A stretch of DNA of 59,803 nucleotides, from the IMG/VR virus record IMGVR_UViG_3300008261_000020, positions 1 to 59,803 of that record, one strand, 5' to 3'. Source of the stretch: a virus. Its lineage: Duplodnaviria; Caudoviricetes. Shown one piece after another: positions 2,510 through 59,411 of the stretch. Position 1 is the first letter of the stretch. Each line of letters begins with the position of its first letter. The notes under the pieces were generated by a model. That model saw only the letters and a list, made by a program, of their open reading frames with translations. It did no database searches and was not told the DNA's origin. The translations under genes were made by a program, and so were the position numbers.

Positions 2510-3932
2510 AAGAATACCGGGATATAGTAATGAGGATATGGTTGAATACTGCGAGACTCTTAAGAGGATTATACTATCCACTAAGGAGGTCAAGGTGGGC
2601 AGGGGTAAAGCCATTGAAACAATAAAAGTATCCAAATATGGAAACGACCCTGATGTTGTAAAGAATATTTTAGATAGTTGCGAATATTATAAATCACCTA
2701 AGATGGAGTTCAGAGATTATCAGATTGATATAATAAAGAAAGGTAAGAAGCTATTGCTTCAACACCGATTCCTATACCTTGCCATGGAGGTGAGGACGGG
2801 TAAAACCCTGACAAGCCTTGGAATATTAGACGGGATTGAGTTGGAGCATGTCTTGTTTGTTACAAAGAAGAAAGCCATCGGAAGTATCGAAGATGATTAT
2901 GAGATGCTCAAACCTTCTTATCAGTTGACCGTAATCAATTATGAAAGCCTTCACATTGTAATGAATGACCAAGTATGGGACGCTGTTATCTTGGACGAGG
3001 CTCATTCATTGGGAGCGTTTGCTAAGCCAAGTGCAAGGGCTGAACTTGTAAGAGATATTCTATGGAACGTAAACCCATTTGTTATTCTACTGAGTGGTAC
3101 ACCAACACCCGAGAGTTATTCTCAGATGTACCATCAGGTATATGGCATCAGGAACAATCCGTTCAGAGAGTTCAGAAGCTTCTACAAGTTTGCCGAGAAG
3201 CACGTAAAGGTTAAGCAGAAGAAAATAAATGGGCTGTACATGAACGACTACAGCAAGGGACTTGATAGTATCATTGAGGCTATGGCTCCTTATACCATCA
3301 GCTACACGCAACAAGAAGCGGGGTTCGTAACTAAAACAATTGAGGAGGTTATTGAGGTAGAGCTAAAGCCAAGCACCATTCAGCTTATAAACAGACTGAA
3401 GAAAGACTTAGTTGTGGAAGGTAAGAACGAGGTGATACTTGCGGACACCCCCGCAAAGTTGATGATGAAGGTGCATCAGTTGTGTAGCGGAACGATTAAG
3501 TTTGAGAGTGGTAATAGCATGGTGCTTGACACCACCAAGGCAGACTTTATTAAGGAGCACTTTGCAGGTTGTAAGATTGGAATCTTTTATAAGTTCAAAG
3601 AAGAACTTGAAGCACTTCGTCAAGTATTTGGTACAGAAAACTTGACAACTGAGCTTAGTGTCTTTGAAGACACTGACAAGAACATAGCACTACAGATTGT
3701 GTCAGGTAGGGAAGGCATCAGCCTGAAGCAAGCCGACTACCTTGTATACTACAACATTGACTTCAGTGCTACAAGTTATTGGCAAAGCAAGGACAGAATG
3801 ACTACAAAAGATAGACAATTTAACCAAGTTTTTTGGATATTTGCAAAGGATGGAATAGAGTATGACATATATAAAGCAGTAACCAAGAAGAAAGATTATA
3901 CTTTAAAACATTTTGAAAAAACATTTTTATGA
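2502..3932 (+). CDS. SNF2-like superfamily 2 helicase
   Basis: FRDYQ Q motif, MEVRTGKT, ILDEAH, LSGTP, GREGISL, QSKDR. Confidence 0.85.
   Translation: MIERIPGYSNEDMVEYCETLKRIILSTKEVKVGRGKAIETIKVSKYGNDPDVVKNILDSCEYYKSPKMEFRDYQIDIIKKGKKLLLQHRFLYLAMEVRTGKTLTSLGILDGIELEHVLFVTKKKAIGSIEDDYEMLKPSYQLTVINYESLHIVMNDQVWDAVILDEAHSLGAFAKPSARAELVRDILWNVNPFVILLSGTPTPESYSQMYHQVYGIRNNPFREFRSFYKFAEKHVKVKQKKINGLYMNDYSKGLDSIIEAMAPYTISYTQQEAGFVTKTIEEVIEVELKPSTIQLINRLKKDLVVEGKNEVILADTPAKLMMKVHQLCSGTIKFESGNSMVLDTTKADFIKEHFAGCKIGIFYKFKEELEALRQVFGTENLTTELSVFEDTDKNIALQIVSGREGISLKQADYLVYYNIDFSATSYWQSKDRMTTKDRQFNQVFWIFAKDGIEYDIYKAVTKKKDYTLKHFEKTFL
3658..3673. repeat. Dispersed palindrome GTGTCTTTGAAGACAC
   Basis: Exact motif inside the helicase, encoding SVFEDT. 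Confidence 0.9.
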
Positions 3933-4240
3933 TTAGATGTGCTTGTGTAAATAGTAAGGACAGACCTAATGCGATACCAAAAGATAAGTGGATTAAGAAG
4001 GGTGAGATATACACCATCGTGTTCGCTATCGTGGTACTACCTCAGAGGGAGCTCGGCTTACAGCTTGATGAGATAACGCTTGATGAGAGTTGTGCACCAT
4101 ACGAATACTTCTTAGCTAATAGGTTTGCGTTTCTTAATGATGACCTATATAAGTTGCAAGAGTTTATAAGGGATTGTGCAAGGGTTAATATGTCCATAAA
4201 AGAATTAATGAAACAATCAAATATTTTAAACCATGCCTGA
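3929..4240 (+). CDS. Hypothetical protein
   Basis: ORF start overlaps the helicase stop. Confidence 0.7.
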   Translation: MIRCACVNSKDRPNAIPKDKWIKKGEIYTIVFAIVVLPQRELGLQLDEITLDESCAPYEYFLANRFAFLNDDLYKLQEFIRDCARVNMSIKELMKQSNILNHA

Positions 4241-4397
4241 TATAACACTATGCCCGGGCAATAATTGCCCACTAAAAGAAACTTGCTATAGGTATAAAGC
4301 TGAACCAAGTGATTATCAATCTTACTTTATTGATACACCATACTATTCAGGGATATGCGAACATTATTGGGAGATAGAAGAATCAAATTCTAATTAA
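4233..4397 (+). CDS. Small Cys-rich hypothetical protein (MPDITLCPGNNCPLKETCYRY...)
   Basis: 54-aa ORF read by hand, below the track cutoff; overlaps the upstream stop. Confidence 0.7.
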   Translation: MPDITLCPGNNCPLKETCYRYKAEPSDYQSYFIDTPYYSGICEHYWEIEESNSN

Positions 4398-4498
4398 TAT
4401 GATAATAATTTTATTTTTAACTTTAATTTCAGCAATAATACTTGGGTATTATTTAGCAAAACTTCACGAAGGTGATGACCCATTTTTATTTTAAAACT

Positions 4499-4702
4499 AT
4501 GAAACAACAAACAGCAGTAGAGTTTCTATTATCAGAATTAGATATAGCTAAATTGATTGAAAGAGAAAAGCTAACTATGGCAGCAGAAGTAGTAAGACAA
4601 TCCAAAGCAATGGAGAAAGAGCAAATAGAAAAAGCCTATGTAGATTCCCATATTTACTCACTTGATAGTGAACAATACTATAATTACAAATATGGAAAAT
4701 AA
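4499..4702 (+). CDS. Hypothetical protein, MKQQTAVE...AMEKEQI type
   Basis: Paralog of the next ORF; start moved to the ATG after an A-rich leader. Confidence 0.7.
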   Translation: MKQQTAVEFLLSELDIAKLIEREKLTMAAEVVRQSKAMEKEQIEKAYVDSHIYSLDSEQYYNYKYGK

Positions 4703-4892
4703 ACAAACTGCAATACAAGGATTTATAGAAGCATTAACAAGTAATGGTTATGTGATTATCAATCAAACATTGATAGATACTTATTTAGCAATGGAGAAGG
4801 AGCAAATAATAAATGCTCATGATAATGGTAAAAACATATTGCCTCCAAATGAAAATGGACAACAATACTACAATGAAACTTATGACAAATGA
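4692..4892 (+). CDS. Hypothetical protein, MENKQTAI...AMEKEQI type
   Basis: Tandem paralog sharing KQTA, AMEKEQI and QYYN. Confidence 0.7.
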   Translation: MENKQTAIQGFIEALTSNGYVIINQTLIDTYLAMEKEQIINAHDNGKNILPPNENGQQYYNETYDK

Positions 4893-5920: not shown

Positions 5921-6428
5921 CATAGATACTTTAAAAAATATAATCGAGATGGTAATGTCAGTAGGTTTAATGGAGACCAATAGGAAAAGATGTGTTGTTG
6001 AGGCACGTATGATGTATGCATACATACTAAGAGAGCTCAACTACTCTTTAAGCAGAATAGGAATGTCTCTAAAGAAAGACCACACCACAATAATACACTA
6101 CCTAACTGCCTTTAGAAAACTGCTTGAGACTGACAAGGAACTGCTTAGAAACTATCATAAGTGCAGGGACATGTTCATGGAAGACAGGGACCCTGAGCTT
6201 ATTAAAAAAAGAGATGACCTAAAGAGCGAGGTCTTTAGGTTGAGTACAAAATTAGAGGTGATGATGATAGAGAATAAGAATTTACAAACTGAAATTAAAA
6301 AACTAAAAGAGGAATCAAAGGTGGGTAATAAAAGATTTAACAGAGTAATAAAGTTTATGGAAGAGAACGTACCTATAGGTCACGAATTTATATTTGAAAG
6401 AAAAATAATAAAGATGTTCGATGAATAA
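5880..6428 (+). CDS. DnaA domain-IV-like HTH protein with C-terminal coiled coil
   Basis: RKRCVVEARMMYAY...SRIG...KDHTTIIHY resembles the DnaA C-terminal domain. Confidence 0.7.
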   Translation: MESTQKFIEEKKSDIDTLKNIIEMVMSVGLMETNRKRCVVEARMMYAYILRELNYSLSRIGMSLKKDHTTIIHYLTAFRKLLETDKELLRNYHKCRDMFMEDRDPELIKKRDDLKSEVFRLSTKLEVMMIENKNLQTEIKKLKEESKVGNKRFNRVIKFMEENVPIGHEFIFERKIIKMFDE

Positions 6429-14100: not shown

Positions 14101-17100
14101 TTCTTTGCAGCTTCCTTTTCAGCAGCCTTGGCTAATATTTTAGCTTCTCTGTCAAATTCTTTTTTTCTTATTTTATTTGCCTTTTCAATTAGTGCCTTCT
14201 GAGCCTCTGCCTTTGTATCAAAGTCTTGCCTACCAACCTCAGTTCCATTTTCATCTTCTGCGTTCCAACTAACGACACCATCCTCGTCAACAATTTTAAC
14301 CAAGTTACCAATTGAATTTCCATCCTCGTCATTCAATGAAACCGATAGCCTTGATATGTATTCGTACTCCCTTCCATTGTCGCCCGTCTTGAAATCCGTT
14401 TCATAATCTACAGCATTGTCCCTTGTAAACTTATCATGGCTTACACTCTCTTCAGTTATTGGCACGTACTGCTCCTCCTCAACAACAGGAGCAGCCTCTA
14501 CAACAGGAGCAGCCTCAACGACAGGAGCTTTGTATATTGTAAATTGGTCAAAGTCTTCTCCTCCACCCGGAGCTTCTTGATAATATTTAAAATCTATATT
14601 AGCTAACTTGTCTTTATATTGTCCTAATATTTGATTGACTACTTTATCTAAGTTTGATATTTTATCAAGTGGGATAGAATCACTAAGGTCAACTATGTCT
14701 CCCTGCTTAGTATACACAAACAATTCAAATCTCCTATTACCATTCCTTCTTCTTGGTATAGAACGAACAGCATCCTTTATTTTTTCTTTTATCTTATCTG
14801 AAATCTTAACAGGTCCTTGAGCTACAGCAGATGCAACCTCCTGTGTCTTTGAAGACACTGTTGGAGCTATACCAAATATAGTGTCAACATCTTTAACCAA
14901 TTGTGACTCTACATTATTTCGCTTATCACTATTGTATGCATTAATTAATTCTGTAATATTTGCAAATTGTGATAATGGGCTGTTCGGGTCTAACAGTGAT
15001 TTGATATTTGTCAAGGCATCTTGTTTGCTTGCCTGTTCTTCATTTGCCCTGCTGCCAAAAGTAAATCCAAAAAAGTCATTTAACTTTTTAATTGCCTTAT
15101 TTGCCTTTGCAGTTGATGTTCTTTTCTCGCTTGTTGTTTGACCAACAGGAGCTTGAGAATAAGCTGTAGTAAAGTTCTCTACTAAATCATTTAATTGAGT
15201 AGCCATCCCTTCGGGAACTTCCTGTGTCTTTGAAGACACTACGGGATTATCTTTGAGGTCTGCTTCCAAATCAGCAATGTCTTGCTTTAATGATTCTATT
15301 AAATCTTGTGATGACTTCTTTGCTTCTTCGGGACTTCTTCCTCTTTCAATATCATTTTTTTCAGACTCTCCTGACTCAACCCACTTAATCAAATCTTTAC
15401 TACTTTGTAATGCCGCAAGCCTTGGGTCTTGGTCATATAGTTCTTTGTATTGGTATCCATATTTTTCAGATGAAGCAGTCTCATCGTAAATAATATATTC
15501 CAAATTGTCCTTAGCCCTTATCTTATCTCTTCTTTGCCTAACAGTCTCATCAAAATCTTCTAAGGTTTTCTTGGCTTTATTATATTCTTCTATTGCAGCT
15601 TCAACATCATCAGCACTACCTATTCTTTTTTGTGCATAAAATACTTCATCAGAAAGTTTACTTCTTTGGTAATCCTCTTCTATTTTTTTATTTCTTAACT
15701 CCTCTCTTTCTTTTATCTTTACTTCTTCTTCCGGGGTGATGACTTCTTCGACACCTTCTGTGGTAGTGACTTGAGGTTCTGCTTGGGGTTTTCCTTCCTC
15801 CACTTCTTCGCTAACTCCGGCTCCTGACTGTACAGATACTTCACCTGCTGCTTGCTTTTGAATGGCATTTTCTTGTATGGTTTTAATTTGTGAACGAATA
15901 GCAGCAGCCTTATCCTTGCCTGACTGCGTTTTATTATTTTCAAATTTCTTTAACTCTTTCTCTAATTCAACAAGAGTATTTAAACTTTCTTCATCAATAT
16001 CGGGATTAGCTTCTTTAACTTCTTTCCTTATTTGATTAGTTACAACTACATCTTGTATTTTATTATTATAACCCTTGTTGTCATTCTTTATTTCAATATT
16101 CATTTTTGAAATATCATCAGGTGTGCCCACCCTTAATATCTCCTCAATGTCTGCTTCAGTTCTATTCTCTCCATTAACCTTATACACAGGCTTTTTCATA
16201 ACCTCTGACACAATATCAATAGCTGCTGATGGTGTCTCTGATATACCTTCAAGAGCAATCTCAGACACGTCTAATGGTTGACCTGCAACTATTCTACCTG
16301 CTGCCTCTCCAACTGAACCGCCTACTCCTTCTATACCACCACCTGCAAGACCTGCCTTTACTTTTGACGCAGCAGTATTTCCAAGCATTTTTGCACCAAC
16401 CTTTCCCGCAAGCCTACCTGTCATGGCATCTATTATACCAATAGTAGCACCTCTTGCTGCTGACTTAACTCTTATTTCAGATAATGCTTTATCATCCTCA
16501 AGTATTTTCTTTACGTTTTCTTCTGTAAAGTCAAGTCCTTTTTCGTTTAATTTATCCTGCAATAGTTCTGAAAATGTAAGACCTGTCTCAAGTGTTGTTC
16601 CGGCAGCAGCCATTGCATAAGGTGCAGATGCTATAGCTGCAGGTGCCGCTCCTGCTCCTCCAAACAGTGCTCCTCCTGCTGCAGCTCCACCAACAACCGT
16701 ACCTGCAGATGCTAATGATGTTGGGTTTACCATTGCAGTATATGAACTCATAATAAGTTCAGGTATGGCTCCGGGATTTTTAACCAATCCTTTAAGCACA
16801 CCAAATATACCTTTACCTTCCTCCTCATAAATCTTTTGATAATTCATCATCTCATCAGAAGGTCCTGCGTTTTGCATTGCCTTAGATGCTGTGACAAATT
16901 TTTGTATTGTTTCAGGAGATGCATACTTGCCACTAACCATTAATTGATTTGATGGAGTAACAACAGCACCTTGCCTTCTTCCTGCGTCTACCGCCCTACC
17001 CATATCATCAATAAAGTCTCCAACTCCAAATGGTGATACCAAGTCCATTACTTCTAATGCAGCACCAAATTTTCCCGTAAAGAATGGCTTTTCTTTTGGA

Positions 17101-29435: not shown

Positions 29436-29476
29436 AAAAAATAAGGAGAGTGTCTTTAAAGACACTCCCCTTTTTT
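29436..29476 (-). terminator. Terminator after the capsid gene, built on the palindrome GTGTCTTTAAAGACAC (29450-29465)
   Basis: Extended hairpin flanked by A and T runs. Confidence 0.7.
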
Positions 29477-34492: not shown

Positions 34493-36735
34493 CTAATAAG
34501 TTGACTTGTACTGCCACTATTACTATACCTTGCGAAATTAATACTTATTTTTGATTCTTTTTTCTCAGGTAAATATACGTGTTTTTGATTTGCCATTATC
34601 GCCAAGCCCGAACTAATTGAAGCATCGAACTTTGTTCTGTCGTTTATATCGAACTTAGCCCAATCCTCAAGCGTTCTTGTAAAGGGCATAGTTCCCATCT
34701 CATCGGGGTCCCTATAAGTACCCGCTAAGTCCATTCCTATATATTTCTCAATGTAAGACTCAATAGCAGATGCGTGTGCCTGCTTAACATCTTCAGAAGA
34801 GTTTGGTATACCGCCAAGCTCACGCTCAGTCTTAGTAAGTTTTGAGTAATGTTTGTCGGGTCTGTTCATGCAAAATGCCCTATATCCCCTGTTCTTAAAG
34901 TGATACAATAGCCTTGGCTTATTGTTCTCTACAAGTATTGGCATGCCATAAAACACACAAGCCATAAGCACTTCCTCAAAAAATATCTCAGCAGTCTGAG
35001 GTCGAGCTACATACTCAAGGAAGAATTGATTTACGGGAGCCTCCTCCATGTGATACTTGGTCATACCGTGAAGCGAACCATTAGAACCCCTTCCTCCAAC
35101 GACAGCAGATATATCGTAAGAGTCGCATCCAAAGGTACCAAGGTGTTCATTGCCGGGATACTTCATGCCGTTTCGGGTGCTTACACTATTTTGTATTTTA
35201 CTGTTAGGTATCCAACTCACTAAAAACCTGCCCCTACTGTCAGGAGTCCATACTACCTTTGAGTCCTTTTCTCCATCCTTCCAATGGAATGAACCCCTTG
35301 TTACATGCTGCTCTTTTATCAATGAGTCATTGTAGTCAATCTGTTGATATATCTTGGTTAGATTAAATAAAGAAGACTTGCTCTCGTCCCTAAAAGCATG
35401 GCTTTCTGTACGAGGAAACTGTCTATAGAATTCATTTAATGCATCTGAATCATTCTTTAACGATTCAACCTCAGCCTCCCAATAGTCTATAGCACCATTG
35501 GTTATTATATTACCATCGACTCCCCTTATAGGAGATTGAGGCTTTCTATATACGGGCATTCCATGTATATCTATAAACCCTTCCATGTTCCATTCCATTG
35601 GAATAAAAAGGGAATACATGCCACTCTTGGTCTGTCCATTAGCATTTCGTGAATCAAGACGTGAGTCTTCATAAAGCTTCTTGTAGTTATCACCACCTTT
35701 GCTTAATGCATTTGACGTAGACCCCATCATACACTTGCCAATAATCTTACTACCCAACCTAAGACAAGTCTTAGTAACTCGCCAATTGTTTAATATGTTG
35801 TTTGGCTTAACCCACTTGGCACTCTCGTCATGAGCCAAGAACAATAACTTCTCTCCATCGTATGAGTTTTCTTCAGTATTTTTCCAATCTATTGTAGTAT
35901 CAAGACCTTTAACCTCTTCATTATCAACATCATACATATTCTTTTTTGTTATCTTTGATGCGGGAACCCTATACGCAAGCTCGGTCTTTGGCTTGTCCAT
36001 ACCATCCATAACGGGTCTAAAGAAAAAAGGCAACCTACTATTTATAGGAACAACCTTATCTGTAAACATTTTCTTCGCATCAGCACCCGTCTTTGATAGT
36101 ATGCCTACACGAGCATCCTTTGCAAGCGTGCCTATGTTCACGCACTCTGATGATGACATGAATGAAAATCCCGAACGTCTTATCTTCAGGTATATCATCC
36201 CAAAGCATCTTGGGTCAGCCTTGCATGCCTCCCAAAATATAAAGAATATTCTATTTGCTTCCCTGTAATCAGGATACCCTATGTCAATACTCGACCATTG
36301 CAGGTACATCCAATGAGACCCCGTTATGTAAGTAGGGACTCCATTGTTCATAAACCAAAAACCTTGTTCCCTATAGTCAAACTGTTTTTCAATGTAGTCA
36401 ACCCACTTGTCCTTAAATTCAGCAGGCATATCATTCCATTGGAATATAGATTGAATCCTATCTAACTCTTTAGGTGTTGATTCTCTCTGCCAATACTGTT
36501 CAGAGTCTTTAGAGTGTCTTTGAAGACACTCACTTGGTGCAAGCGGAAGTGCAATATATAGTCCTGAAATGTTTACAACCTCACCTATTTGACCCGTCTT
36601 AGATATAACGACCATATCATACTGTTCATTATATCCATACTTCCAAGACCGCACATTGTTTTTCTTTCCAATGGCTGTCTTTGGGATATAGTCTTTAACT
36701 ATTCTATATATACTATTTTGACCTTCGTTCTGCAA
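34489..36735 (-). CDS. Terminase large subunit
   Basis: KIRRSGFS Walker A, HDESAK Walker B, GSTSN coupling motif, GCDSYD nuclease motif, VENNK. Confidence 0.88.
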   Translation of the reverse strand: MQNEGQNSIYRIVKDYIPKTAIGKKNNVRSWKYGYNEQYDMVVISKTGQIGEVVNISGLYIALPLAPSECLQRHSKDSEQYWQRESTPKELDRIQSIFQWNDMPAEFKDKWVDYIEKQFDYREQGFWFMNNGVPTYITGSHWMYLQWSSIDIGYPDYREANRIFFIFWEACKADPRCFGMIYLKIRRSGFSFMSSSECVNIGTLAKDARVGILSKTGADAKKMFTDKVVPINSRLPFFFRPVMDGMDKPKTELAYRVPASKITKKNMYDVDNEEVKGLDTTIDWKNTEENSYDGEKLLFLAHDESAKWVKPNNILNNWRVTKTCLRLGSKIIGKCMMGSTSNALSKGGDNYKKLYEDSRLDSRNANGQTKSGMYSLFIPMEWNMEGFIDIHGMPVYRKPQSPIRGVDGNIITNGAIDYWEAEVESLKNDSDALNEFYRQFPRTESHAFRDESKSSLFNLTKIYQQIDYNDSLIKEQHVTRGSFHWKDGEKDSKVVWTPDSRGRFLVSWIPNSKIQNSVSTRNGMKYPGNEHLGTFGCDSYDISAVVGGRGSNGSLHGMTKYHMEEAPVNQFFLEYVARPQTAEIFFEEVLMACVFYGMPILVENNKPRLLYHFKNRGYRAFCMNRPDKHYSKLTKTERELGGIPNSSEDVKQAHASAIESYIEKYIGMDLAGTYRDPDEMGTMPFTRTLEDWAKFDINDRTKFDASISSGLAIMANQKHVYLPEKKESKISINFARYSNSGSTSQLIR
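36514..36529. repeat. Dispersed palindrome GTGTCTTTGAAGACAC
   Basis: Exact motif in the terminase (CLQRH), arms extend to 36512-36531. Confidence 0.9.
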
Positions 36736-46565: not shown

Positions 46566-46901
46566 CTAAACTTTTGAAACTCTTTTTCCCATACCAACCC
46601 TGCCCTTCTCAGCTTTCTTAGCAGCAAGCTTGGATGGGCTCAACTCAGACTTGGTAGTTGGTGTCTTTGAAGACACTCTCTTTGTTGGACGACAGTACTC
46701 ATTCTTACCACCTGCACCACAAGCCTTACCACTTTTAGTATCGACCCACTTCTCTGATTGCCATCTTTTTAACGCAGTTCCGGACTCAGTCCTTCGGACA
46801 GAGCCTGATTGTTTCCTACATTTAGCAATAGCCTGCGAAGCCCTTGCAGATGGGAACACATCGTAAGATGCCTTTACCTTTCTATAGCAAGAGTCTTTCA
46901 T
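46566..46901 (-). CDS. Basic Cys-containing phage protein
   Basis: CYRKVK...FPSARAS...LKRW..EKWVD....ACG....YCRP..RVSSKTP. Confidence 0.65.
   Translation of the reverse strand: MKDSCYRKVKASYDVFPSARASQAIAKCRKQSGSVRRTESGTALKRWQSEKWVDTKSGKACGAGGKNEYCRPTKRVSSKTPTTKSELSPSKLAAKKAEKGRVGMGKRVSKV
46661..46676. repeat. Dispersed palindrome GTGTCTTTGAAGACAC
   Basis: Exact motif (VSSKT). Confidence 0.9.
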
Positions 46902-49339: not shown

Positions 49340-50927
49340 AGGTTCTTGCCATTGTGATGATAGCGTTAGTTGACAATATTGTCGTAGCAACACTGACTGC
49401 ATTCTGCAAGGCAGAACGAGTGACCTTAAGCGGGTCAACGACACCCATCTTGATTAGGTCCCCAAACTTACCTGTTTTTAAATTATATCCATCACCATCG
49501 TTACTTAATGAGCCATACACCTCACCATACTGAACCCCTGCGTTCTCAAGTATCTGAAGTAATGGTGCACGTAGTGCATTGGAGACTATTCTAACAGCAG
49601 CCTTCTTCTCATCAGACCAACTCTCATCAATTGCAATAAGACTCTCGCTGTATAGTGCCTTACCCGCTCCCGGCAGTATACCTTCCTCTAATGCTGCCCT
49701 TACCGCACATACCGCATCGTCAATCCTATCATACAACTCTTTTTGCTCAAGGTCAGTATTGCCACCCGCAAAGATGACACCAATCCCTCCTGTCAAGGAG
49801 GCAATACGCTCAAGCAAGAAATCTTTGTCAGCCTTCCTCTTGGCAGCCTTGTGTGCGTCCCATAGTTGGGTGACTCGTTCCTGAATTTTGACAGAGTCAA
49901 TCTTCAGGTCGGACTTGAGGATAATGGTCTTATCTTTACTCACTATCACCTTAGCAGCGTGACCTAAGTCAGCGTAAGTAATGTGAGATAAATCGTCTCC
50001 GGTCTTTTCTGAGAAGTAAGTGGCTCCAACGGAGACTGCAAGGTCTTGCATTAACTCGTGTTGCTTATACCCAAAACTTGGCGGTGGTATCGCACATATC
50101 TTCAAGTTGCCTTTCATCACATTCGCAGCCAATGTGTTTACCACATTAACGTGACAAGGAGCAACTATCAAAAGCTTCTTGCCTTCGGTAATGATTGGCT
50201 TCAGTATGTTCTCAATGTTTAGGATGTTCCCTATCTCAATATCAGCTACAAGAATCATAGTGTCCTCAAAGACACACTCATCTTTCTTTTGGTCGTTGAT
50301 AAATAGCGGACTCAAATACCCCCTGTCAATTTTCAATCCCATAGTTGTCTCGGCATAAGTCTCCGAAGTCTGAGACTTCTCTACCGTTACTATACCATTC
50401 TTCCCCACCTCTTTGTATACCTCGGCAATAATCTTTCCCAACTCTTTGTCATTGTTCGCTGATATAGTAGCCACGTCAGTTAAGGTGCTGCCTGAGACCT
50501 TCTTCGAACGTCTCCGGAGGTTCTCCACCACCTTGCCACTTATCTCCACCATGTTGCGTAGCACCTCGGTACGATTATGAGTTGGAAGAAGATGCTCAAC
50601 ACCACCCATCACCAATGCCTCTGTGAGCACAATAGCGGTCGTTGTACCGTCTCCGGCAGCAGTAGCTGTACGGTCGGCTGCCTCCTTCATCATCTTGACA
50701 GAAAGGTTCTCTACGGGGTCTAACAAGTCAACCGCTTTCGCAACAGTTACACCATCCTTGGTGACAGTGATACCATGAGTATGTGTTGGTGATTCTATAA
50801 CTACCGTGTTTCCATTGGGACCCAATGTACTCTTCACAGCATTTGCAATAGCATTAATTCCTTTGATTAGTTTAGACCTACCTTCCTCTCCGAAACGTAA
50901 GTCCTTAGGTGAATATCCGATTTCCAT
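49326..50927 (-). CDS. groEL: Chaperonin GroEL (Cpn60)
   Basis: AVKSTLGPNG, VTKDGVTVAK, AGDGTTTA, ISANND, VVDPLKVTRSALQNA; no GGM tail. Confidence 0.95.
   Translation of the reverse strand: MEIGYSPKDLRFGEEGRSKLIKGINAIANAVKSTLGPNGNTVVIESPTHTHGITVTKDGVTVAKAVDLLDPVENLSVKMMKEAADRTATAAGDGTTTAIVLTEALVMGGVEHLLPTHNRTEVLRNMVEISGKVVENLRRRSKKVSGSTLTDVATISANNDKELGKIIAEVYKEVGKNGIVTVEKSQTSETYAETTMGLKIDRGYLSPLFINDQKKDECVFEDTMILVADIEIGNILNIENILKPIITEGKKLLIVAPCHVNVVNTLAANVMKGNLKICAIPPPSFGYKQHELMQDLAVSVGATYFSEKTGDDLSHITYADLGHAAKVIVSKDKTIILKSDLKIDSVKIQERVTQLWDAHKAAKRKADKDFLLERIASLTGGIGVIFAGGNTDLEQKELYDRIDDAVCAVRAALEEGILPGAGKALYSESLIAIDESWSDEKKAAVRIVSNALRAPLLQILENAGVQYGEVYGSLSNDGDGYNLKTGKFGDLIKMGVVDPLKVTRSALQNAVSVATTILSTNAIITMARTYDAK
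50260..50275. repeat. Dispersed palindrome with one mismatch (GTGTCCTCAAAGACAC)
   Basis: Inside groEL (VFEDT). Confidence 0.75.
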
Positions 50928-51519: not shown

Positions 51520-51840
51520 GGGGCTATATACCGGTTCTGCGTGGCGGGACCCGAACCGAAAGTGACTTTTTTTTGAGGGGGTGGGGGTCGCTTTTCGTCC
51601 GACCCTCAGCAAATTTTTGGCTTTTTGCCGTGGCAATTGTCCCCGTCCCCGTTCCCCATCCCGTATTCGCCCCTCCTTTGTTCGTTCTACGTCCCCCGTC
51701 CCGTTCAAGGTCCCACGTAATTCGCCCCCGTTCCCCCGTCTGTAGTGTCTTTGAAGACACAAAGCAAAGAGAGTAAGGAGGCTGACCCCGTCCCTTTTCC
51801 CCCGTGCTTAAACTTTCCGCCCAATTTCCCCACGCTGAAA
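51520..51840. repeat. GC-rich, C-skewed noncoding region with CCCCGT repeats; palindrome copy at 51745-51760
   Basis: Many CCCCGT/CCCGT units between the divergent arms. Confidence 0.6.
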
Positions 51841-51902: not shown

Positions 51903-51934
51903 TTTGGTAATGTCAAAAAGTTAGACGAGATTTG
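51903..51934 (+). promoter_or_regulatory. Putative early promoter
   Basis: TTTG-N20-GAGATTTG, one mismatch to TAnnTTTG, upstream of the first plus-strand gene. Confidence 0.55.
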
Positions 51935-51971: not shown

Positions 51972-52634
51972 ATGAGCACACAATTACTTGCAATCGAGAC
52001 AGCCTTCCTTCGTCAGTCAGAAGTCGCATCAGCACTGAACTTGAACGAAATCAGGAGCCTTCAAAGGACAATTCAGAACGGACAGAAGAAGAAGTTCGAG
52101 CAGTCTCTTACTCTGAGCCAACACGTAAACAATGCCTTCGAGTGGTTCAAATCTGCTGAGGGTCAAAGGAAGTTAAACGAGGAGGGCATTGCTTGGACCT
52201 CTGAGCAATTCGCTCAAAAAGTATTTGGGTTTCAAAAATCTTATTTCTACAAATTGGTGAAGGTGGCGAACCTTGAGTCTGAGGTGGTTGAAACGTTCAA
52301 AGCGAAATGCGATGAACTTGAGGGTCAAGGATCTGAACCAATTCGCTCAGTGGAAAACCTCCTCAAATTTGCAAGGGCTTCTGAGGAGACGAACAACGAG
52401 GGGGAAAGTGAAGAGGCTGAGGTGGAAACCCGCACTCAAACAATTTTCACTTTGACCTTCAAACATCCCGATGGTAACATCTCGGTGCGAATAGATGAGG
52501 CGGGGCAGATGAAGACAACCAATAACACTACAGAGTTATTGAGTGCAATTAAATTTCTTCAGCACGCTATTGTTGACGCGGTGGGTCGTGAGAATATCGA
52601 GGGATGTCGTGAGTGCGGTGGTATTTACGAATAG
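51972..52634 (+). CDS. Hypothetical early protein, possible HTH
   Basis: FAQKVFGFQKSYFYKLVK helix-turn-helix-like segment. Confidence 0.7.
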   Translation: MSTQLLAIETAFLRQSEVASALNLNEIRSLQRTIQNGQKKKFEQSLTLSQHVNNAFEWFKSAEGQRKLNEEGIAWTSEQFAQKVFGFQKSYFYKLVKVANLESEVVETFKAKCDELEGQGSEPIRSVENLLKFARASEETNNEGESEEAEVETRTQTIFTLTFKHPDGNISVRIDEAGQMKTTNNTTELLSAIKFLQHAIVDAVGRENIEGCRECGGIYE

Positions 52635-52639: not shown

Positions 52640-52663
52640 GGTGGTGTCTTCAAAGACACCGCC
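52640..52663. repeat. Hairpin containing the palindrome GTGTCTTCAAAGACAC (52644-52659)
   Basis: GGTGGTGTCTT-CA-AAGACACCGCC directly 5' of hammerhead 1. Confidence 0.9.
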
Positions 52664-52714
52664 TCCGTCCGAGAGTGATTACTCTCGCTGATGAGTCCAA
52701 TAGGACGAAACGGA
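52664..52714 (+). ncRNA. Hammerhead ribozyme, type III (HH1)
   Basis: UCCG-UC^; stem I CGAGAGU-GAUU-ACUCUCG; CUGAUGA; stem II GUCC-AAUA-GGAC; GAAA-CGGA; predicted cut after 52669. Confidence 0.95.
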
Positions 52715-52734
52715 AACCAAAAAAATCTAATCAA

Positions 52735-53630: not shown

Positions 53631-53681
53631 GGGGGTGTCCTTCGGGTGCGTGTCTTTAAAGACACCGCCCCGACACTCCCC
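53631..53681. repeat. Long GC hairpin capped by the palindrome GTGTCTTTAAAGACAC (53650-53665)
   Basis: GGGGGTGTC...GACACTCCC outer stem; directly 5' of hammerhead 2. Confidence 0.85.
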
Positions 53682-53730
53682 CCGTCTCAGCGTGTGTACG
53701 CTGACTGATGAGCTCAAAAGAGCGAAACGG
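53682..53730 (+). ncRNA. Hammerhead ribozyme, type III (HH2)
   Basis: CCG-UC^; stem I UCAGCGU-GUGU-ACGCUGA; CUGAUGA; stem II GCUC-AAAA-GAGC; GAAA-CGG; predicted cut after 53686. Confidence 0.95.
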
Positions 53731-53789
53731 AAATAGCCACGCGAAGCGTGTCTATCCCCCATCGGAATCACACTTTAAACCAAACCACT

Positions 53790-54503: not shown

Positions 54504-54504
54504 A

Positions 54505-54564: not shown

Positions 54565-54580
54565 GTGTCTTCAAAGACAC
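54565..54580. repeat. Dispersed palindrome GTGTCTTCAAAGACAC
   Basis: Lies in the leader between the promoter and the GATase start. Confidence 0.9.
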
Positions 54581-55821: not shown

Positions 55822-56052
55822 ATGTCAAAAGCAAATGTTCTAACAATTCTCGTTGCATTATTCCCATCTTATGCTTCATTGTATTGCGACCAAGTTTCAT
55901 CAGGAATTTTATTGGTACTAAGTACTATAATTTTTGGTGTGGTAACGGGTGCTAATGAAGGAGAAGAAAAAATGAAAGACAAGATTCAAATGGGATGGAT
56001 ACTCCATATTGTAGGGGTGTTCATTGTCATCGGTGTAAAAAGTATTCAGTAA
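55822..56052 (+). CDS. Small membrane protein
   Basis: Two to three hydrophobic helices; start moved to MSKAN. Confidence 0.65.
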   Translation: MSKANVLTILVALFPSYASLYCDQVSSGILLVLSTIIFGVVTGANEGEEKMKDKIQMGWILHIVGVFIVIGVKSIQ

Positions 56053-56061
56053 TTTTAATAA

Positions 56062-56085
56062 GGCGGTGTCTTCAAAGACACTGCC
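56062..56085. repeat. Hairpin containing the palindrome GTGTCTTCAAAGACAC (56066-56081)
   Basis: GGCGGTGTCTT-CA-AAGACACTGCC, intergenic. Confidence 0.9.
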
Positions 56086-56110
56086 CATTTCTAAACCTAA
56101 ACGTAAACGT

Positions 56111-56281
56111 ATGTTATCAGAACAAGAAAGACTAATGTTATTGCAAGGCACAATTGATAGAATCCTCTACCTATCCGACAATGATAGGGAGGAGTTCCTT
56201 AACTACTTAGAGACACTCTATACCCTCTATCCTATACCAAAGAAGATAAGATATGGTGCTGAAATTTTCAATGAGGAGTAA
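56111..56281 (+). CDS. Hypothetical protein
   Basis: Start moved to MLSEQ. Confidence 0.6.
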   Translation: MLSEQERLMLLQGTIDRILYLSDNDREEFLNYLETLYTLYPIPKKIRYGAEIFNEE

Positions 56282-56329
56282 TCCTCAGACTGCGATGGTC
56301 TCAGTTCGGGTTCGACTCCCGATGCAGTC
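56272..56329 (+). ncRNA. Hairpin plus tRNA-elbow-like element B
   Basis: UGAGGA-GUAA-UCCUCA; closing stem GACUGC/GCAGUC; AUGGUCU; T-arm UCGGG-UUCGACU-CCCGA. Confidence 0.6.
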
Positions 56330-56348
56330 CTCATCAAATCAAATCAAA

Positions 56349-56573
56349 ATGCAAGTTTACAGAATCAACACAACAGCCTACGAAGAAGAAGACTTTTATC
56401 TATTAACTGACCTTACAGAGCAAGACATTGTTGAGGTAATCAATCCACTTGTCATGCAAGAGCGTGACGGGTACGAAGAGTATGACAATGACATACTTTT
56501 AAACGCCCTAAAGAAACGTTTTCACAAGGCAAAAATCTTTATGTTCACAGACTTTGAAACATTAACATTCTAA
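56349..56573 (+). CDS. Hypothetical acidic protein
   Basis: Start moved to MQVYR after an AAATCAAATCAAA leader. Confidence 0.65.
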   Translation: MQVYRINTTAYEEEDFYLLTDLTEQDIVEVINPLVMQERDGYEEYDNDILLNALKKRFHKAKIFMFTDFETLTF

Positions 56574-56578
56574 ATCAA

Positions 56579-56776
56579 ATGGCACACATAAAAATTGAGA
56601 AGGACGAAGAGAGGATAAGCGTACAAGTGGAGGGCGTAGCAGGAGAACTTGCTGAGATTATGTACAAGGCAATACTAACTGAGCCAATGCTTGGGCTAAT
56701 TCTTATTGATGCAATGGAAAGGATAAGCAAGTTAGCAGAAAGAGATAATTTATTTAACGACATAAATCTAAATTAA
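56579..56776 (+). CDS. Hypothetical protein
   Basis: ORF in the operon. Confidence 0.65.
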   Translation: MAHIKIEKDEERISVQVEGVAGELAEIMYKAILTEPMLGLILIDAMERISKLAERDNLFNDINLN

Positions 56777-56777
56777 A

Positions 56778-57176
56778 ATGGAAGTAAACATCAAAACAAA
56801 AATCGAAAGAGAGGTGTTGGAGAACATCTTCGTAAATGCTCTTGAGGGTGGCAGTAACTATTGGTATTACATAACCGATAAGGAGTACAACAAGATAAGA
56901 CAAGCCGTACCAAAGAGCGAGGAGGAAGCATTCTCAATGGCTATGTTCAAGGCAATCTTTGACAAGGGAGTTGAGGTCTTTATCAATGACGCAGAGAATC
57001 CGGAGGAGGAGTTGGGTATGCTCAGTTACCAAATCATCAGTCAAAGACTTAATAGGTTGGCAAGCAATCCGCACTATGCCAAGTTCCTAACTGCTGAGAT
57101 AGAAGGCAACGGAGATGCTGAGACAAGCGATGCCATCTTCCAATTGTTAACCATGAACGACATCGTATTCGGATGA
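56778..57176 (+). CDS. Hypothetical phage protein
   Basis: ALEGGSNYW...DAETSDAIFQ....DIVFG. Confidence 0.7.
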   Translation: MEVNIKTKIEREVLENIFVNALEGGSNYWYYITDKEYNKIRQAVPKSEEEAFSMAMFKAIFDKGVEVFINDAENPEEELGMLSYQIISQRLNRLASNPHYAKFLTAEIEGNGDAETSDAIFQLLTMNDIVFG

Positions 57177-57394
57177 TACACGAATTCAAAACAGCAATAC
57201 CCGTCCACACTCCTCACGGAGAGGGACGGGCTATCCTTATCATTGACTACGGGTTGGATACCAATTCGGTGTGGATAGTAAGGCTATCGGGTGGACATAT
57301 CAAACACTATTACTCAGAAGACATACGCATGTATGACAATCCAATGAATGGTAATGAGTGGGATATTGACATACCAAAAAGTTGGAAGCAATAA
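57173..57394 (+). CDS. Hypothetical phage protein
   Basis: IPVHTPHGEG.A..IIDYG. Confidence 0.7.
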   Translation: MIHEFKTAIPVHTPHGEGRAILIIDYGLDTNSVWIVRLSGGHIKHYYSEDIRMYDNPMNGNEWDIDIPKSWKQ

Positions 57395-57412
57395 AAAAAT
57401 GTACTATCTTTG
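57381..57412 (+). promoter_or_regulatory. Bacteroidota promoter
   Basis: GTTG-N20-TATCTTTG. Confidence 0.7.
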
Positions 57413-57434
57413 TACGAAACTAAATCAAATTAAC

Positions 57435-57698
57435 ATGAAAGAATTTACAATGGAAGTCCCCTCAATGACGGGGATAAACACAAAGGAAGAGTTCATAAAC
57501 ACGGGCAGAATAGTTCCACGTCTTGTGTTTGAGAGCAAGTATCCGACAGAGTATTTACACGTGAACACTACTGATGTAGTGGTATATGCGGGAGGTAGCT
57601 ACATTCAAATGCTTAAGACAAAGGGTTTTATGTTGGACCACAAGGTCTATGTTAAACTTGACTTGGCAGAGGATGTATTGTGGGAAAATATTTCTTAA
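57435..57698 (+). CDS. Hypothetical protein
   Basis: Start moved to MKEFT downstream of the promoter. Confidence 0.65.
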   Translation: MKEFTMEVPSMTGINTKEEFINTGRIVPRLVFESKYPTEYLHVNTTDVVVYAGGSYIQMLKTKGFMLDHKVYVKLDLAEDVLWENIS

Positions 57699-57756
57699 AA
57701 AAAAGTGACGAGTATTAAACATATTAACTATATTCGTACACACTAATTTAATCAAA

Positions 57757-58059
57757 ATGAAGCAAGATGTTTTTAATCAGTATGTTGACAGGATAGTTGA
57801 CCTGTTTGGGATAACTAAGGAAGAGTTGTTTTCTAAGTCTAAGAAGAGGGAGATAGTTGATGCGAGGTATCTACTATACTACCTATGCTTCAAGCGTCCA
57901 ATGACCATAGTATACATTCAAAAGTATATGAAGGAGAGGGGCTACGACATACAACACTCATCGGTTATTCACGGAATAAACGATGTGTCAGACAGAGTTA
58001 AGGAGGACGCAGACTACATGCAAATCGTTAAGGAAATAGACAAGGCAGTATTCATTTAA
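57757..58059 (+). CDS. DnaA domain-IV-like HTH protein
   Basis: FGITKEELFSKSKKREIVDARYLLYYL...HSSVIHG. Confidence 0.75.
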   Translation: MKQDVFNQYVDRIVDLFGITKEELFSKSKKREIVDARYLLYYLCFKRPMTIVYIQKYMKERGYDIQHSSVIHGINDVSDRVKEDADYMQIVKEIDKAVFI

Positions 58060-58075
58060 ATCAAAATCAAATACA

Positions 58076-58660
58076 ATGGAATCAGTTTACGGAAAATTAT
58101 CAGCCATCAGTGTCAAGGACAAAATCGAAAGGAAGGGTAACCTTGACTACCTATCTTGGGCAAATGCTTGGGCTATGCTTAAGGCTATCTACCCCGATGC
58201 TCAGCGTAAGGTATACGAGAGCGACCACACGGGTCTTAATTACTTTACAGATGGTGTTACCGCCTACGTAAAGGTTGGTGTTATAGTGAACGACATCGAG
58301 CACATTGACTACCTACCCATCATGGACTTCAAGAACAATTCAATTCCTATCGGCAAGGTAACATCAACAGATGTAACCAAGTCTATTCAGCGTAGCACAG
58401 CCAAGGCTATTGCTATGCACGGATTGGGACTCAGCCTATGGACGGGCGAGGACGTTCCCGAAATCGTAAGCGAACCCAAGAAGGAGACGGCTCCTCAGTT
58501 GGTTGAACTTAAGAAGGGGACAGAAGCGTGGGACAGAGTTGTTGCATACGTAACAGCTAACAAAGGTCTTGGCATTGAGAAGATTGGTCAGCAGTTGAAT
58601 ACCAAGTACAAGATTAGCCCCGCCCTAAAGAAAGAGATTGTCGCACTACTAAAAGACTAA
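58076..58660 (+). CDS. Sak3/DUF1071-like single-strand annealing protein
   Basis: LDYLSWANAW...YPDA...LPIMD..N...IQRSTAKAIAMHGLGL.LW.GED. Confidence 0.8.
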   Translation: MESVYGKLSAISVKDKIERKGNLDYLSWANAWAMLKAIYPDAQRKVYESDHTGLNYFTDGVTAYVKVGVIVNDIEHIDYLPIMDFKNNSIPIGKVTSTDVTKSIQRSTAKAIAMHGLGLSLWTGEDVPEIVSEPKKETAPQLVELKKGTEAWDRVVAYVTANKGLGIEKIGQQLNTKYKISPALKKEIVALLKD

Positions 58661-58661
58661 C

Positions 58662-59396
58662 ATGCAAGACATAATAAATCAATTGAAAGATGACAACGAG
58701 TACTACAATGGTATGGGTAAATACTACCTATCCAATTCAGACATTGGTGTACTACTTAGTAACCCCAAAAATTTTAGGGTACAAAGAGAAGACAATAAAA
58801 GTTTTGCAGAAGGAAGACTATTCCATCAGCTACTCATCGAACCCGAGAAGGCGGAGGTTGTACCTAACGTGGACGTAAGCACACGAACTACGAAGGATTA
58901 CAAGAACTACTGTGCAGAGCACAGTGTTGACTTCTGTCTACTCACCAAGGAGGTCGAAGAGATTAAGAACCTTGTCAGCGTGATGAAAAGCAATATCTTA
59001 TTTTACGATGAGATATACAGACCCAATAACATCTACGAGCAACCAATGATAGCAGAAATAAAGGGGATGCAGTGGAAGGGCAAGGCTGATATAGTCACGG
59101 ATGATAGTATCATTGACCTCAAGACAACGTCTGACATAAACAAGTTCAGATATACTGCGAAGCAGTATAACTATGACTCCCAATGCTACATATATCAGCA
59201 GTTGTTCGGCAAGCCATTGGTATTCTATGTGATAGACAAGGCTACTGCACAGCTTGGGATATTCAGACCATCAGAAAACTTCATACGTGGCGGTGAGTTG
59301 AAAGTGGAGAAAGCTATTGAGGTATACAACAAGTACTTCAGCCCCAATCCAACGGACGACATCGCTAACTACTACATTGACGAGACACTTGATTAG
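58662..59396 (+). CDS. PD-(D/E)XK exonuclease (RecE/DUF3799-like)
   Basis: LSNSDI, GRLFH..LIEP, KGKAD, IDLKTT, YDSQ..IY. Confidence 0.8.
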   Translation: MQDIINQLKDDNEYYNGMGKYYLSNSDIGVLLSNPKNFRVQREDNKSFAEGRLFHQLLIEPEKAEVVPNVDVSTRTTKDYKNYCAEHSVDFCLLTKEVEEIKNLVSVMKSNILFYDEIYRPNNIYEQPMIAEIKGMQWKGKADIVTDDSIIDLKTTSDINKFRYTAKQYNYDSQCYIYQQLFGKPLVFYVIDKATAQLGIFRPSENFIRGGELKVEKAIEVYNKYFSPNPTDDIANYYIDETLD

Positions 59397-59411
59397 TGTC
59401 TTTGAAGACAC
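59396..59411. repeat. Dispersed palindrome GTGTCTTTGAAGACAC
   Basis: Begins at the last base of the stop codon. Confidence 0.9.

Follow-up and report, generated by a model that had tools for sequence, protein, structure and literature searches.

What reads a short palindrome that a virus repeats along its whole genome, behind stop codons, in non-coding gaps, and inside conserved genes alike, and what would such reading bring about? The question is raised by the IMG/VR virus record IMGVR_UViG_3300008261_000020 (Duplodnaviria; Caudoviricetes), here analyzed over its full length of 59,803 bases (hereafter "the window"), which a genome search gives as a complete virus record and which is the whole genome of a ~60-kb podophage. 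The element in question is the 16-bp palindrome GTGTCTTNNAAGACAC (GTGTCTT-NN-AAGACAC), and it is a real, highly non-random, family-wide, co-evolving signal. As to its function, we tentatively favor, with somewhat under even confidence, a composite explanation drawn from sequence comparison, in which the palindrome would be a DNA operator, or a stoperator- or KorB-like site, for a phage regulator, and its transcript would double as a hairpin at RNA 3′ ends.

The palindrome in the window and across its phage family

Twelve exact copies of the palindrome occur in the window (starts in Table 1), as against a mean of 0.00 and a maximum of 0 in 100 dinucleotide-preserving shuffles. A scan allowing up to two mismatches brought in one extra site, at 50260 (GTGTCCTCAAAGACAC, one mismatch), for a total of 13 vs 0.33 expected (maximum 2), and found no degenerate copies around the exact class beyond it; the sites are a sharp class, not a diffuse motif. 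Their central dinucleotides are TG (seven copies), CA (four, 50260 included), and TA (two), all of them pyrimidine-purine (YR). Six of the 13 copies are genic and are read in three frames (VFEDT, VSSKT, and CLQRH), and six fall within 51.7–59.4 kb, the rightward small-gene block. A preliminary description made from the letters of the window had given the same 13 copies, with their coordinates, YR centers, six genic members in three frames, and highest density near the early region, and the motif scan with mismatches agreed with it on each of these points.

The only near relative among GenBank phages, MW202828.1, has zero copies of the window's palindrome and 14 copies of GTGTCGTTAACGACAC, in which the change in one arm is mirrored in the other arm and of which one stands at the place homologous to window copy 54565. 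We gathered 80 loci from IMG/VR by a search with the gamma-glutamyl-cyclotransferase (GGCT)-like protein (mostly ~60-kb contigs) and made an unbiased count of 7+2+7 palindromes in 82 sources, i.e., the window, MW202828.1, and the 80 loci. One dominant palindrome with at least three copies was present in 74 of the 82 sources (in one of these it is the low-complexity TATATAT), and the other eight had fewer than three copies. GTGTCTT was the most frequent arm, and 13 others were met with. Dominant arms by source were GTGTCTT (48), GTGTCCT (5), GTCTCTT (4), GTCCGTT (3), GGGGGTT (3), GAGGGTT (2), and GTCTGTT (2), with GTGTCGT, GTGTACA, GACGCCT, GGGTATT, GAGAGTT, and GTCTCGT in one source each. Five complete GTGTCTT relatives hold 10–13 copies each (reversed-pattern control, 0), and in nine of ten further complete genomes the genome's own type occurs in 6–15 exact copies, the remaining genome, G015, having a 6+2+6 form. 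Throughout, one geometry is kept: G always comes first, T nearly always occupies position 7, and lineages differ at positions 2–6. Intermediate states occur as well, including several GTGTCCT..AAGACAC hybrid copies in the mixed genome G014 and a GGGGGTT..AACCCTC form that resembles a G.U intermediate between the GGGGGTT and GAGGGTT types. In all, 594 sites with up to two mismatches came from 73 sources (485 without a mismatch, 92 with a single one, and 17 with two); after duplicate removal, 257 sites were intergenic and 218 genic. Among isolated relatives, no cultured model of the palindrome system was found.

When the sites of 17 complete genomes were mapped onto the window's genes, the places proved to recur. 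A site 5′ of the first rightward gene (A2, described below) is present in all 17; further early places are just 3′ of A2, on both flanks of the genes for a glutamine-synthetase (GS)-fold protein and the GGCT-like protein, and 3′ of the exonuclease gene, and elsewhere sites recur within the helicase gene, the 5′ part of the large terminase (TerL) gene, and open reading frame (ORF) 46566-46901, in or near a giant ORF, and just 3′ of the capsid gene. The TerL, helicase, post-capsid, 5′-of-A2, and GGCT-flanking places bear each lineage's own palindrome. The encoded residues go with it: TerL reads CLQRH with GTGTCTT, CPQRH with GTGTCCT (G014), and SLQRD with GTCTCTT (G013), and in G009 and G015 the TerL site again holds the lineage's own palindrome, with other residues for the GAGAGTT and GCTCGT types; the helicase reads VFEDT with GTGTCTT, LFQQT with GTCTGTT (G008), and PFERT with GTCCGTT (G006). 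Lineages lacking the site (e.g., MW202828.1 and G012) have unrelated residues at the homologous coding positions. In G012 (L364), the helicase homolog (6210-7469) carries two TAG and one TAA interruptions, and the record holds 10 N; the gene may be broken, the assembly faulty, or an insertion present.

By this comparison, selection at the coding copies is on the nucleic acid rather than on the protein, as the preliminary description had proposed from the three frames. Sites that are uniform within a genome and yet change in concert at fixed places call for a trans-acting, sequence-specific reader that co-evolves with them, which sustains the earlier proposal of a protein that recognizes the sites, with the reader being phage-encoded.

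The motif is not a host element. Among at least 120 bacterial stretches listed as containing it, it occurs in single copies across unrelated phyla, and no CRISPR-like arrays were seen in these stretches; the exception is L286 (WTJX01000555.1), a 56,458-bp contig in a Cytophagales metagenome-assembled genome, with four copies in 8 kb, which is very likely a phage of the palindrome family binned with the Cytophagales genome and gives a weak host hint. A host-element origin was rejected on these grounds. The arms contain GAAGAC, which we take to be a type IIS site; a restriction site or chance was likewise rejected, because relatives preserve the geometry but alter the sequence.

A candidate reader and an RNA hairpin

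Of four reader candidates in the preliminary description, A2 (51972-52634) came out best, and the protein distances of 47950-48405 do not track palindrome type (r 0.02). A2 has a helix-turn-helix (HTH)-like segment, WTSEQFAQKVFGFQKSYFYKLVKV, seen in the alignment, and its AlphaFold model has a mean pLDDT (predicted local distance difference test) of 83. A homodimer is predicted with a score of 0.59, the best of three controls reaching 0.00; in calibration, solved homodimers reached that mark in 20 of 30 cases and single chains in 1 of 23. The dimer runs agree in at least 88% of contacts, with a partner pLDDT of at least 79, and the interface comprises residues 5-73 and 158-204, with the HTH mostly outside it. 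Palindrome copies stand on either side of the gene (Table 1). A search for A2 homologs gave 332, all of them unnamed. Homologs are present in 17 of 17 complete palindrome genomes and in 69 of the 80 loci, many of which are cut, and none was found in either of two outgroup phages, the isolated Flavobacterium phage elemoE and Maribacter phage Panino, whose capsid genes are 48–53% identical to that of the window and which are also without a repeated palindrome. Distances between palindromes correlate with distances between A2 proteins (r 0.70, vs 0.02–0.63 for nine other proteins), also in a partial Mantel test (partial r 0.51, 0 of 999 permutations), and in a window scan along A2 the partial correlation peaks on the putative recognition helix. 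By another measure, the protein of 52735-53622 was the top palindrome-tracking one (area under the curve 0.96); this rank was taken as phylogenetic signal, the protein having a glutamine-synthetase-like fold and no Pfam family.

Upstream of A2 lies a putative early promoter with one mismatch to what we take to be the Bacteroidota −33/−7 consensus (TTTG-N17-23-TANNTTTG), and its −7 box is exact in G002-G004. Neither the whole pattern (6 matches vs 3.57 expected) nor TANNTTTG by itself (74 vs 69.5) is enriched in the window under this consensus, and because such patterns lack enrichment, just single, sensibly placed matches are cited here. The palindrome copy 5′ of A2, ~190 bp above this promoter, is probably outside the early transcript. 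Another promoter-like match, at 54505-54536, lies near palindrome copy 54565.

In the transcript, intergenic copies occupy a defined position. They start 0–20 nt past the upstream stop codon, and the distance from the palindrome to the next ATG is bimodal, 15–23 nt or 71–86 nt, the longer mode arising because a hammerhead ribozyme lies in between. Two probable type III hammerheads, which fall just short of the Rfam RF00008 gathering score of 48.5 bits, flank gene 52735-53622 in the window (Table 1), and one in a relative exceeds that score at 49.2 bits. Double cleavage would free a ~1-kb RNA with 5′-OH and cyclic-phosphate ends, and relatives bear many hammerhead-flanked modules. Since hammerhead stem III starts 1–2 nt past the palindrome in some modules, the palindrome must be on the same transcript as the ribozyme; after cleavage, we infer, it would form a strong hairpin a few nucleotides from the upstream RNA's 3′ end. 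Two more hammerhead-like motifs, without a palindrome, lie between small genes on the + strand at ~54020-54075 and 54283-54335, with the layout GGTTAA-CTGAYGAG-stem-CGAA-GC hairpin-GAC-TTAACC; they resemble the type I topology with the 15.1-16.1 pair swapped, Rfam is silent on them at E ≤ 1, and if they cleave, the upstream RNA would retain the GC hairpin of the ribozyme itself.

An intrinsic terminator stands 3′ of the capsid gene in every readable genome (n = 15). Its apex is the lineage's palindrome in 11 of the 15, set on a G-rich/C-U-rich lower stem and followed by a U-run, and in the other four (G004, MW202828.1, G010, and G015) it is an ordinary hairpin. The window's copy 29450 has the extended stem and the UUAUUUUUU of an intrinsic terminator, and copy 59396 resembles one in weaker form; 5′ of the latter, GACAC-N7-GTGTC (59384-59411) can form a competing hairpin with the left arm, which the minimum-free-energy fold favors. 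Folding energies in the window range from −12.9 to −20.5 kcal/mol for extended copies (z −4.3 to −6.4; 29450, −20.5, z −6.4; 52644, −18.4, z −6.4; 53650, −18.7, z −5.3; 56066, −16.8, z −6.4) and from −6.6 to −11.8 kcal/mol for genic copies (z ~ −2). Most copies fall outside the intrinsic-terminator class, as a sense U-run follows 19 of 193 non-hammerhead intergenic copies vs 17 on the antisense strand, and stem extension is absent from 100 of these 193 and from genic copies likewise.

Substitutions within the sites carry a mixed imprint. At hammerhead-linked copies, flank positions 1 and 2 have G.U 37 and 24 times vs A.C 4 and 0 times. Imperfect cores read on the sense strand have G.U 53 vs A.C 26 overall, counts that overstate independent events because several stem from three related genomes; at position 6/11 the figures are 28 vs 23, and this position tolerates T/C and A/G independently, which looks like half-site degeneracy and not RNA pairing. 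Centers of genic copies are nearly without strand bias (CA 104 vs TG 86). The intergenic center bias (CA 157 vs TG 39) was dropped as proof of an RNA role, as an A/C-rich leader composition can explain much of it; the 77-to-3 CA/TG bias of hammerhead-linked copies stands apart from that composition. Placement at stop codons, the terminator, and hammerheads points to expression control, and by these comparisons an RNA hairpin is under selection at many sites. The hairpin that the preliminary description had mentioned in passing is, to this extent, real, and its treatment there as minor did not stand.

Readings of the palindrome

In the composite explanation, the palindrome would be the cognate site of a phage-encoded, sequence-specific dimeric protein, A2 being the likeliest reader. 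A2 would bind duplex DNA, each HTH reading one variable outer half-site (positions 1–5 and 12–16), with the half-sites ~10 bp apart across the conserved T-YR-A center. The 10–15 sites per genome would make up one regulon, with a site 5′ of the early promoter, a site at most of the boundaries between early cistrons, and a few at fixed places in the replication and late modules, and binding would control transcription through an elongation block or long-range silencing, like mycobacteriophage stoperators or KorB operators. Because a transcribed palindrome must fold, its RNA would have been recruited into useful hairpins: it would cap the post-capsid intrinsic terminator, and it would cap the G-rich/C-U-rich stem left at the upstream mRNA 3′ end after hammerhead self-cleavage, where the extra stem would lock the hairpin away from the ribozyme and the hairpin would shield the newly made 3′ end. 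Recognition of five specific pairs per arm is typical of HTH dimers on B-DNA, and RNA hairpin readers rarely do such reading of both arms. In addition, the described precedents for dispersed identical sites, stoperators and KorB operators, are all DNA sites, and we counted this for DNA reading. The comparisons show the sites, their lineage-specific co-variation and kept positions, the extended RNA stems, and the tie to hammerheads; the role of A2 as reader, DNA as its target, and the effect of binding we infer, and binding of A2 to the palindrome is a prediction.

Several observations on the protein and on the RNA weigh against this explanation. The same window scan on nine other proteins gave maxima of 0.37–0.67 (0.64 for 52735-53622, 0.67 for 56778-57176, and 0.56 for GroEL), and because unrelated proteins peak equally high or higher, the covariation of A2 was counted as weak support; further, the GTCTCTT type pairs with three helix variants, and one GTGTCCT locus has the helix of the GTGTCTT type. 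A2 has no Foldseek match in PDB at E ≤ 0.001 and no Pfam family at E ≤ 1 beyond noise. Its structural matches in the exhaustive VIA-align comparison (DNA-binding domain of KorB, 1r71, at rank 2, Z 5.6, root-mean-square deviation 3.1 over 93 residues; Spo0J, Z 5.2; KorB, 4.9; ParB-parS, 4.3) lie below the caution line for helical proteins, and protein-atlas leads to DUF3102, to a plasmid-partition family of Borrelia, and to a "ParB HTH" cluster (0.88–0.90) are under the caution line too. Blocking sites inside late genes such as TerL lack an evident purpose. On the RNA side, a hammerhead core lies within 50 nt 3′ of 91 of 284 unique intergenic copies and 5′ of 18 of 284; the stem is extended by at least three contiguous pairs (sense G.U allowed) in 80 of 96 hammerhead-linked copies and, read on the other strand, in 21 of 96; centers at hammerhead-linked copies are CA 77, TA 11, TG 3, and CG 3; and core mismatches outside position 6 are G.U 25 vs A.C 3 on the sense strand.

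The RNA features are those of an alternative that we regard as possible though doubtful, namely that a 6–7-bp stem with a U-Y-R-A loop in the sense transcript marks mRNA 3′ ends for a protein reader. Such ends would come from hammerhead cleavage, intrinsic termination, or other processing, and the reader (A2 or another phage protein) would set stability, processing, or translation; the histone mRNA stem-loop with its binding protein and CRISPR repeats with Cas6 are precedents. Sites just past stop codons, the long ATG-distance mode with its hammerhead, the predominance of the palindrome-then-hammerhead order, a stem III so placed as to keep the palindrome at the upstream product's 3′ end, extensions rich in G.U and nearly free of A.C at hammerhead-linked copies, core mismatches and a GGGGGTT..AACCCTC form of G.U character, the core atop most post-capsid terminators, and UCAA loops favored at 77 of 97 hammerhead-linked copies all argue for an RNA tag. 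It is harder to square with five stem pairs identical in all copies of a genome, which is unusual for hairpin-binding proteins, with an extension just outside the core that drifts freely by compensation, as expected of a plain RNA stem, or with the lack of G.U preference at position 6/11; moreover, the copy 5′ of the early promoter in all 17 genomes probably lies outside the early transcript, about half of the non-hammerhead intergenic copies and the genic copies are unextended, and four genomes build the post-capsid terminator without the core. Nor was an RNA-binding protein recognized among the 46 window proteins that the family scans took in (~28 small ORFs were left out). The fuller claim of a phage "mRNA end tag," i.e., a fixed stem-loop at message 3′ ends that is read as RNA by a co-evolving phage protein, we consider unlikely; if true, it would set the stability or translation of whole transcript classes and would be the bacterial-virus counterpart of the histone stem-loop system, with ribozymes cutting the 3′ ends.

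Three further explanations depart from expression control through A2 or an RNA tag. The preliminary description had preferred a parS/matS-like role to an ordinary operator, and a parS- or centromere-like or other genome-organizing site would be loaded by a ParB/KorB-like protein that serves segregation, compaction, entry, or packaging, with gene control not its main task. A 16-bp palindrome in ~10–15 copies, clustered by the divergent region at the GC-skew minimum, would suit this, as would the weak ParB, KorB, Spo0J, and plasmid-partition leads for A2 and its predicted dimer; yet neither ParA, a ParB N-terminal domain, an integrase, nor a plasmid-type maintenance gene turned up among the scanned proteins, the GC-skew turn coincides with the gene-strand switch, and cistron-boundary placement, terminator apex, and hammerhead link would be left unexplained, so that we now think the role improbable. 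Copying could also keep sites alike if they were boundaries of mobile or recombination cassettes (REP/RAYT-like or PeSL-like), or the copies could be decoys of host CRISPR repeats. MW202828.1 copies at 44541 and 44808 have an identical 22-nt downstream flank, and small-gene content between sites differs among relatives, but homologous codons of conserved genes switch in place to the lineage's palindrome, 6 of the 13 window copies are genic, no transposase-like gene or family turned up in the scans, and the single occurrences in the bacterial stretches listed, L286 excepted, speak against decoys; we find these explanations very improbable. Hardly credible at all, in our view, are N4-type hairpin promoters, in which the palindrome would extrude as a DNA hairpin and a virion-packaged RNA polymerase would initiate just downstream of it, in front of early genes. 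In favor of such promoters, the phage has a giant 3080-aa virion ORF and a crAss-muzzle-like protein, and hairpins without U-runs after them stand 15–23 nt before many early ATGs, but no polymerase signature was found, the giant ORF having no D.D.D motif, PDB match (E ≤ 1), or polymerase Pfam or PHROG family. Besides, stem III 1–2 nt past the palindrome means that transcription must arrive from upstream, copies lie within TerL, GroEL, and helicase genes, and one copy forms a terminator. For the crAss-like phage phi14:2, the accessible part of the report describes early transcripts without a common upstream motif (bioRxiv 10.1101/2020.03.07.982082), which also counts against such promoters.

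If the composite explanation holds, an abundant freshwater and marine Bacteroidota phage family runs its gene programme via one small regulon of identical sites, and the site sequence has switched many times together with its reader, leaving a natural series of orthogonal protein-site pairs. The palindrome would also show clearly how protein sequence can give way to a nucleic-acid signal even in essential genes (terminase and helicase), its coupling to hammerheads and terminators makes phage hammerhead function and the protection of cleaved mRNA ends testable, and so easily recognized a signature aids the annotation and grouping of metagenomic contigs.

Genome context and known systems compared

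The window's genes form two blocks. The leftward block, between ~51.4 kb and 7.3 kb, encodes GroEL, lysis and tail proteins, TerL, portal, a capsid-like protein, a protein matching the crAss "muzzle," and the 3080-aa ORF; the rightward block starts at 51.97 kb, passes over the record end, and reaches ~7 kb, and it contains small genes and those for the glutamine-synthetase-fold protein, a GATase/GGCT-like protein, two DnaA-C-like HTH proteins, Sak, an exonuclease, a primase-helicase, and a helicase. The capsid gene is 48–53% identical to capsids of isolated Flavobacterium (Elemovirus), Cellulophaga, and Maribacter phages, which makes a host within the Flavobacteriia/Bacteroidota very probable. 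Among the 46 proteins scanned, none was recognized as an RNA polymerase, DNA polymerase, integrase, or ParA. Features are collected in Table 1.

Table 1 Palindrome copies and associated features of the window
Feature	Coordinates	Strand	Remarks
Palindrome in helicase gene 2502-3932	3658..3673		VFEDT; same position kept in 6/6 GTGTCTT genomes
Palindrome in 3080-aa virion ORF	14843..14858		VSSKTQEV repeat
Palindrome in 3080-aa virion ORF	15224..15239		Second VSSKTQEV repeat
Palindrome (29450-29465) atop extended hairpin + U-run	29445..29470	-	Intrinsic terminator adjoining capsid-like gene 29481-30902, downstream
Palindrome in 5′ part of TerL gene 34489-36735	36514..36529		CLQRH
Palindrome in ORF 46566-46901	46661..46676		VSSKT; kept in 5/6 GTGTCTT genomes
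One-mismatch copy in GroEL gene 49326-50948	50260..50275		VFEDT; mismatch is U.G on the sense (-) strand
Palindrome, divergent non-coding region	51745..51760		~190 bp 5′ of putative early promoter, 212 bp 5′ of gene 51972
Putative early promoter (TTTG, 20 nt, GAGATTTG)	51903..51934	+	One mismatch to presumed Bacteroidota −33/−7 consensus
A2, first early gene, candidate palindrome reader	51972..52634	+	HTH-like segment; predicted homodimer
Palindrome (52644-52659), stem extended by GGUG/CGCC	52640..52663	+	10 nt past stop of 51972-52634; 3 nt before hammerhead
Probable type III hammerhead ribozyme	52662..52716	+	Rfam RF00008, 47.9 bits vs gathering 48.5, E 1.8e-7; 3 nt past palindrome
Palindrome on extended stem	53650..53665	+	28 nt past stop of gene 52735-53622; 14 nt before hammerhead
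Second probable type III hammerhead ribozyme	53679..53733	+	Rfam RF00008, 40.7 bits vs gathering 48.5, E 2e-5; 14 nt past palindrome
Palindrome 5′ of GATase/GGCT-like gene 54604-55707	54565..54580	+	24 nt before ATG
Palindrome (56066-56081), stem extended by GGCG/UGCC	56062..56085	+	Between genes 55822-56052 and 56111-56281
Palindrome overlapping TAG stop of exonuclease gene 58662-59396	59396..59411	+	Then CUUUUAUUUU, terminator-like

Some of the individual sites have particulars of their own. The GroEL copy homologous to 50260 has no mismatch in G004, and in G014 it matches that genome's own type perfectly. The VSSKT frame belongs to a peptide that recurs, as VSSKTQEV at two places in the giant ORF and as RVSSKTPTT in ORF 46566-46901, and in both giant-ORF copies (14843-15239) the nucleotide repeat runs 7 nt past the palindrome. 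Around the early region, the cumulative GC skew reaches its minimum at ~50–52 kb, beside the divergent region, a turn that does not by itself place an origin because the gene-strand switch coincides with it. The divergent non-coding region (51520-51745) is very C-rich on the + strand, with CCCCGTCCCC-type repeats, and holds a block common to relatives, a T-run followed by GAGGGGTGGGGG; an origin, a structured leader, and a non-coding RNA are all conceivable roles for the region. Three lake metatranscriptome runs contained next to no sequence words from 51500-59800.

Several neighboring genes are also of note. The 3080-aa ORF (8193-17435, − strand) has DUF7178 as its sole family match, and its 1501-aa neighbor (22390-26895, − strand) has a weak match to PF25731, the "muzzle" protein of crAss (E 1.1e-7); a distant kinship of the phage with crAss-like podophages is thus possible, though without a recognizable virion polymerase. 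Early gene 52735-53622 (+ strand), with its glutamine-synthetase-like fold (Foldseek E 1.8e-4, mean pLDDT 85), is located near the GATase/GGCT-like gene 54604-55707 (+ strand), a pair that presumably resembles phage amidoligase gene sets. Finally, 47950-48405 (+ strand) is the sole rightward gene within the leftward block and has no Pfam family; directly 5′ of it, at 47892-47926 (+ strand), is a full match to the presumed Bacteroidota promoter pattern, and its homolog in MW202828.1 is annotated "repressor protein."

Literature searches on such repeats, with supplementary files outside their scope, found no description of the palindrome or of this phage family's regulation, which leaves intact the view of the preliminary description that this is not a described element. 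For the RNA-tag alternative, a functional analogy is offered by the histone mRNA 3′ stem-loop, a 16-nt hairpin (6-bp stem and 4-nt loop) of fixed sequence with cleavage a few nucleotides downstream: here, too, a 16-nt fixed hairpin would lie near many mRNA 3′ ends. The histone element, however, is eukaryotic and non-homologous, whereas palindrome copies are often internal or possibly untranscribed and their reader is a candidate only. As for the ribozymes, hammerheads are reported to flank single genes in phage and prophage operons, implying long transcripts that are cut to gene-length mRNAs (PMC3088659), and the two probable type III hammerheads around gene 52735-53622 are alike in this; the accessible text of that paper makes no mention, for phage or prophage hammerheads, of a fixed, lineage-specific palindrome directly 5′ of the ribozyme.

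The nearest described systems are stoperators and KorB operators. In Cluster A mycobacteriophages (L5, Bxb1), stoperators are present in many dispersed copies, mostly off promoters and often in short intergenic gaps, and their motifs differ by lineage, tracking the immunity repressor, which blocks elongation (PMC6550527, PMC9283540). The palindrome shares with them its many dispersed, phage-specific, and lineage-specific copies. Stoperators are asymmetric 13-bp sites that are bound by a monomer and oriented with transcription, whereas here the site is a 16-bp palindrome with just its central two bases asymmetric, the genic centers are nearly balanced between the strands, and the candidate reader is a predicted dimer; stoperators number ~30 as against 10–15 sites, belong to temperate phages where here no integrase was seen among the scanned proteins, and have no described link to RNA hairpins, terminators, or ribozymes, all three of which the palindrome has. 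Unlike stoperators, the palindromes also sit within conserved genes.

The OB sites of plasmid RK2 number 12. KorB of that plasmid is a dimeric HTH protein of the ParB family that silences genes from dispersed palindromic OB operators, some of them far from promoters (PMC11790492). Like these operators, the phage site is palindromic and dispersed over the replicon in about a dozen copies, and KorB/ParB DNA-binding domains are the best, if weak, structural leads for A2. Unlike in the KorB system, the scanned proteins yielded neither the CTPase domain of the ParB N terminus nor a partner of the ParA/IncC or KorA kind, and the setting here is a phage and not a plasmid, with sites coupled to stop codons, a terminator, and hammerheads. 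Across these comparisons, the palindrome works most like stoperators or KorB operators and is a member of neither.

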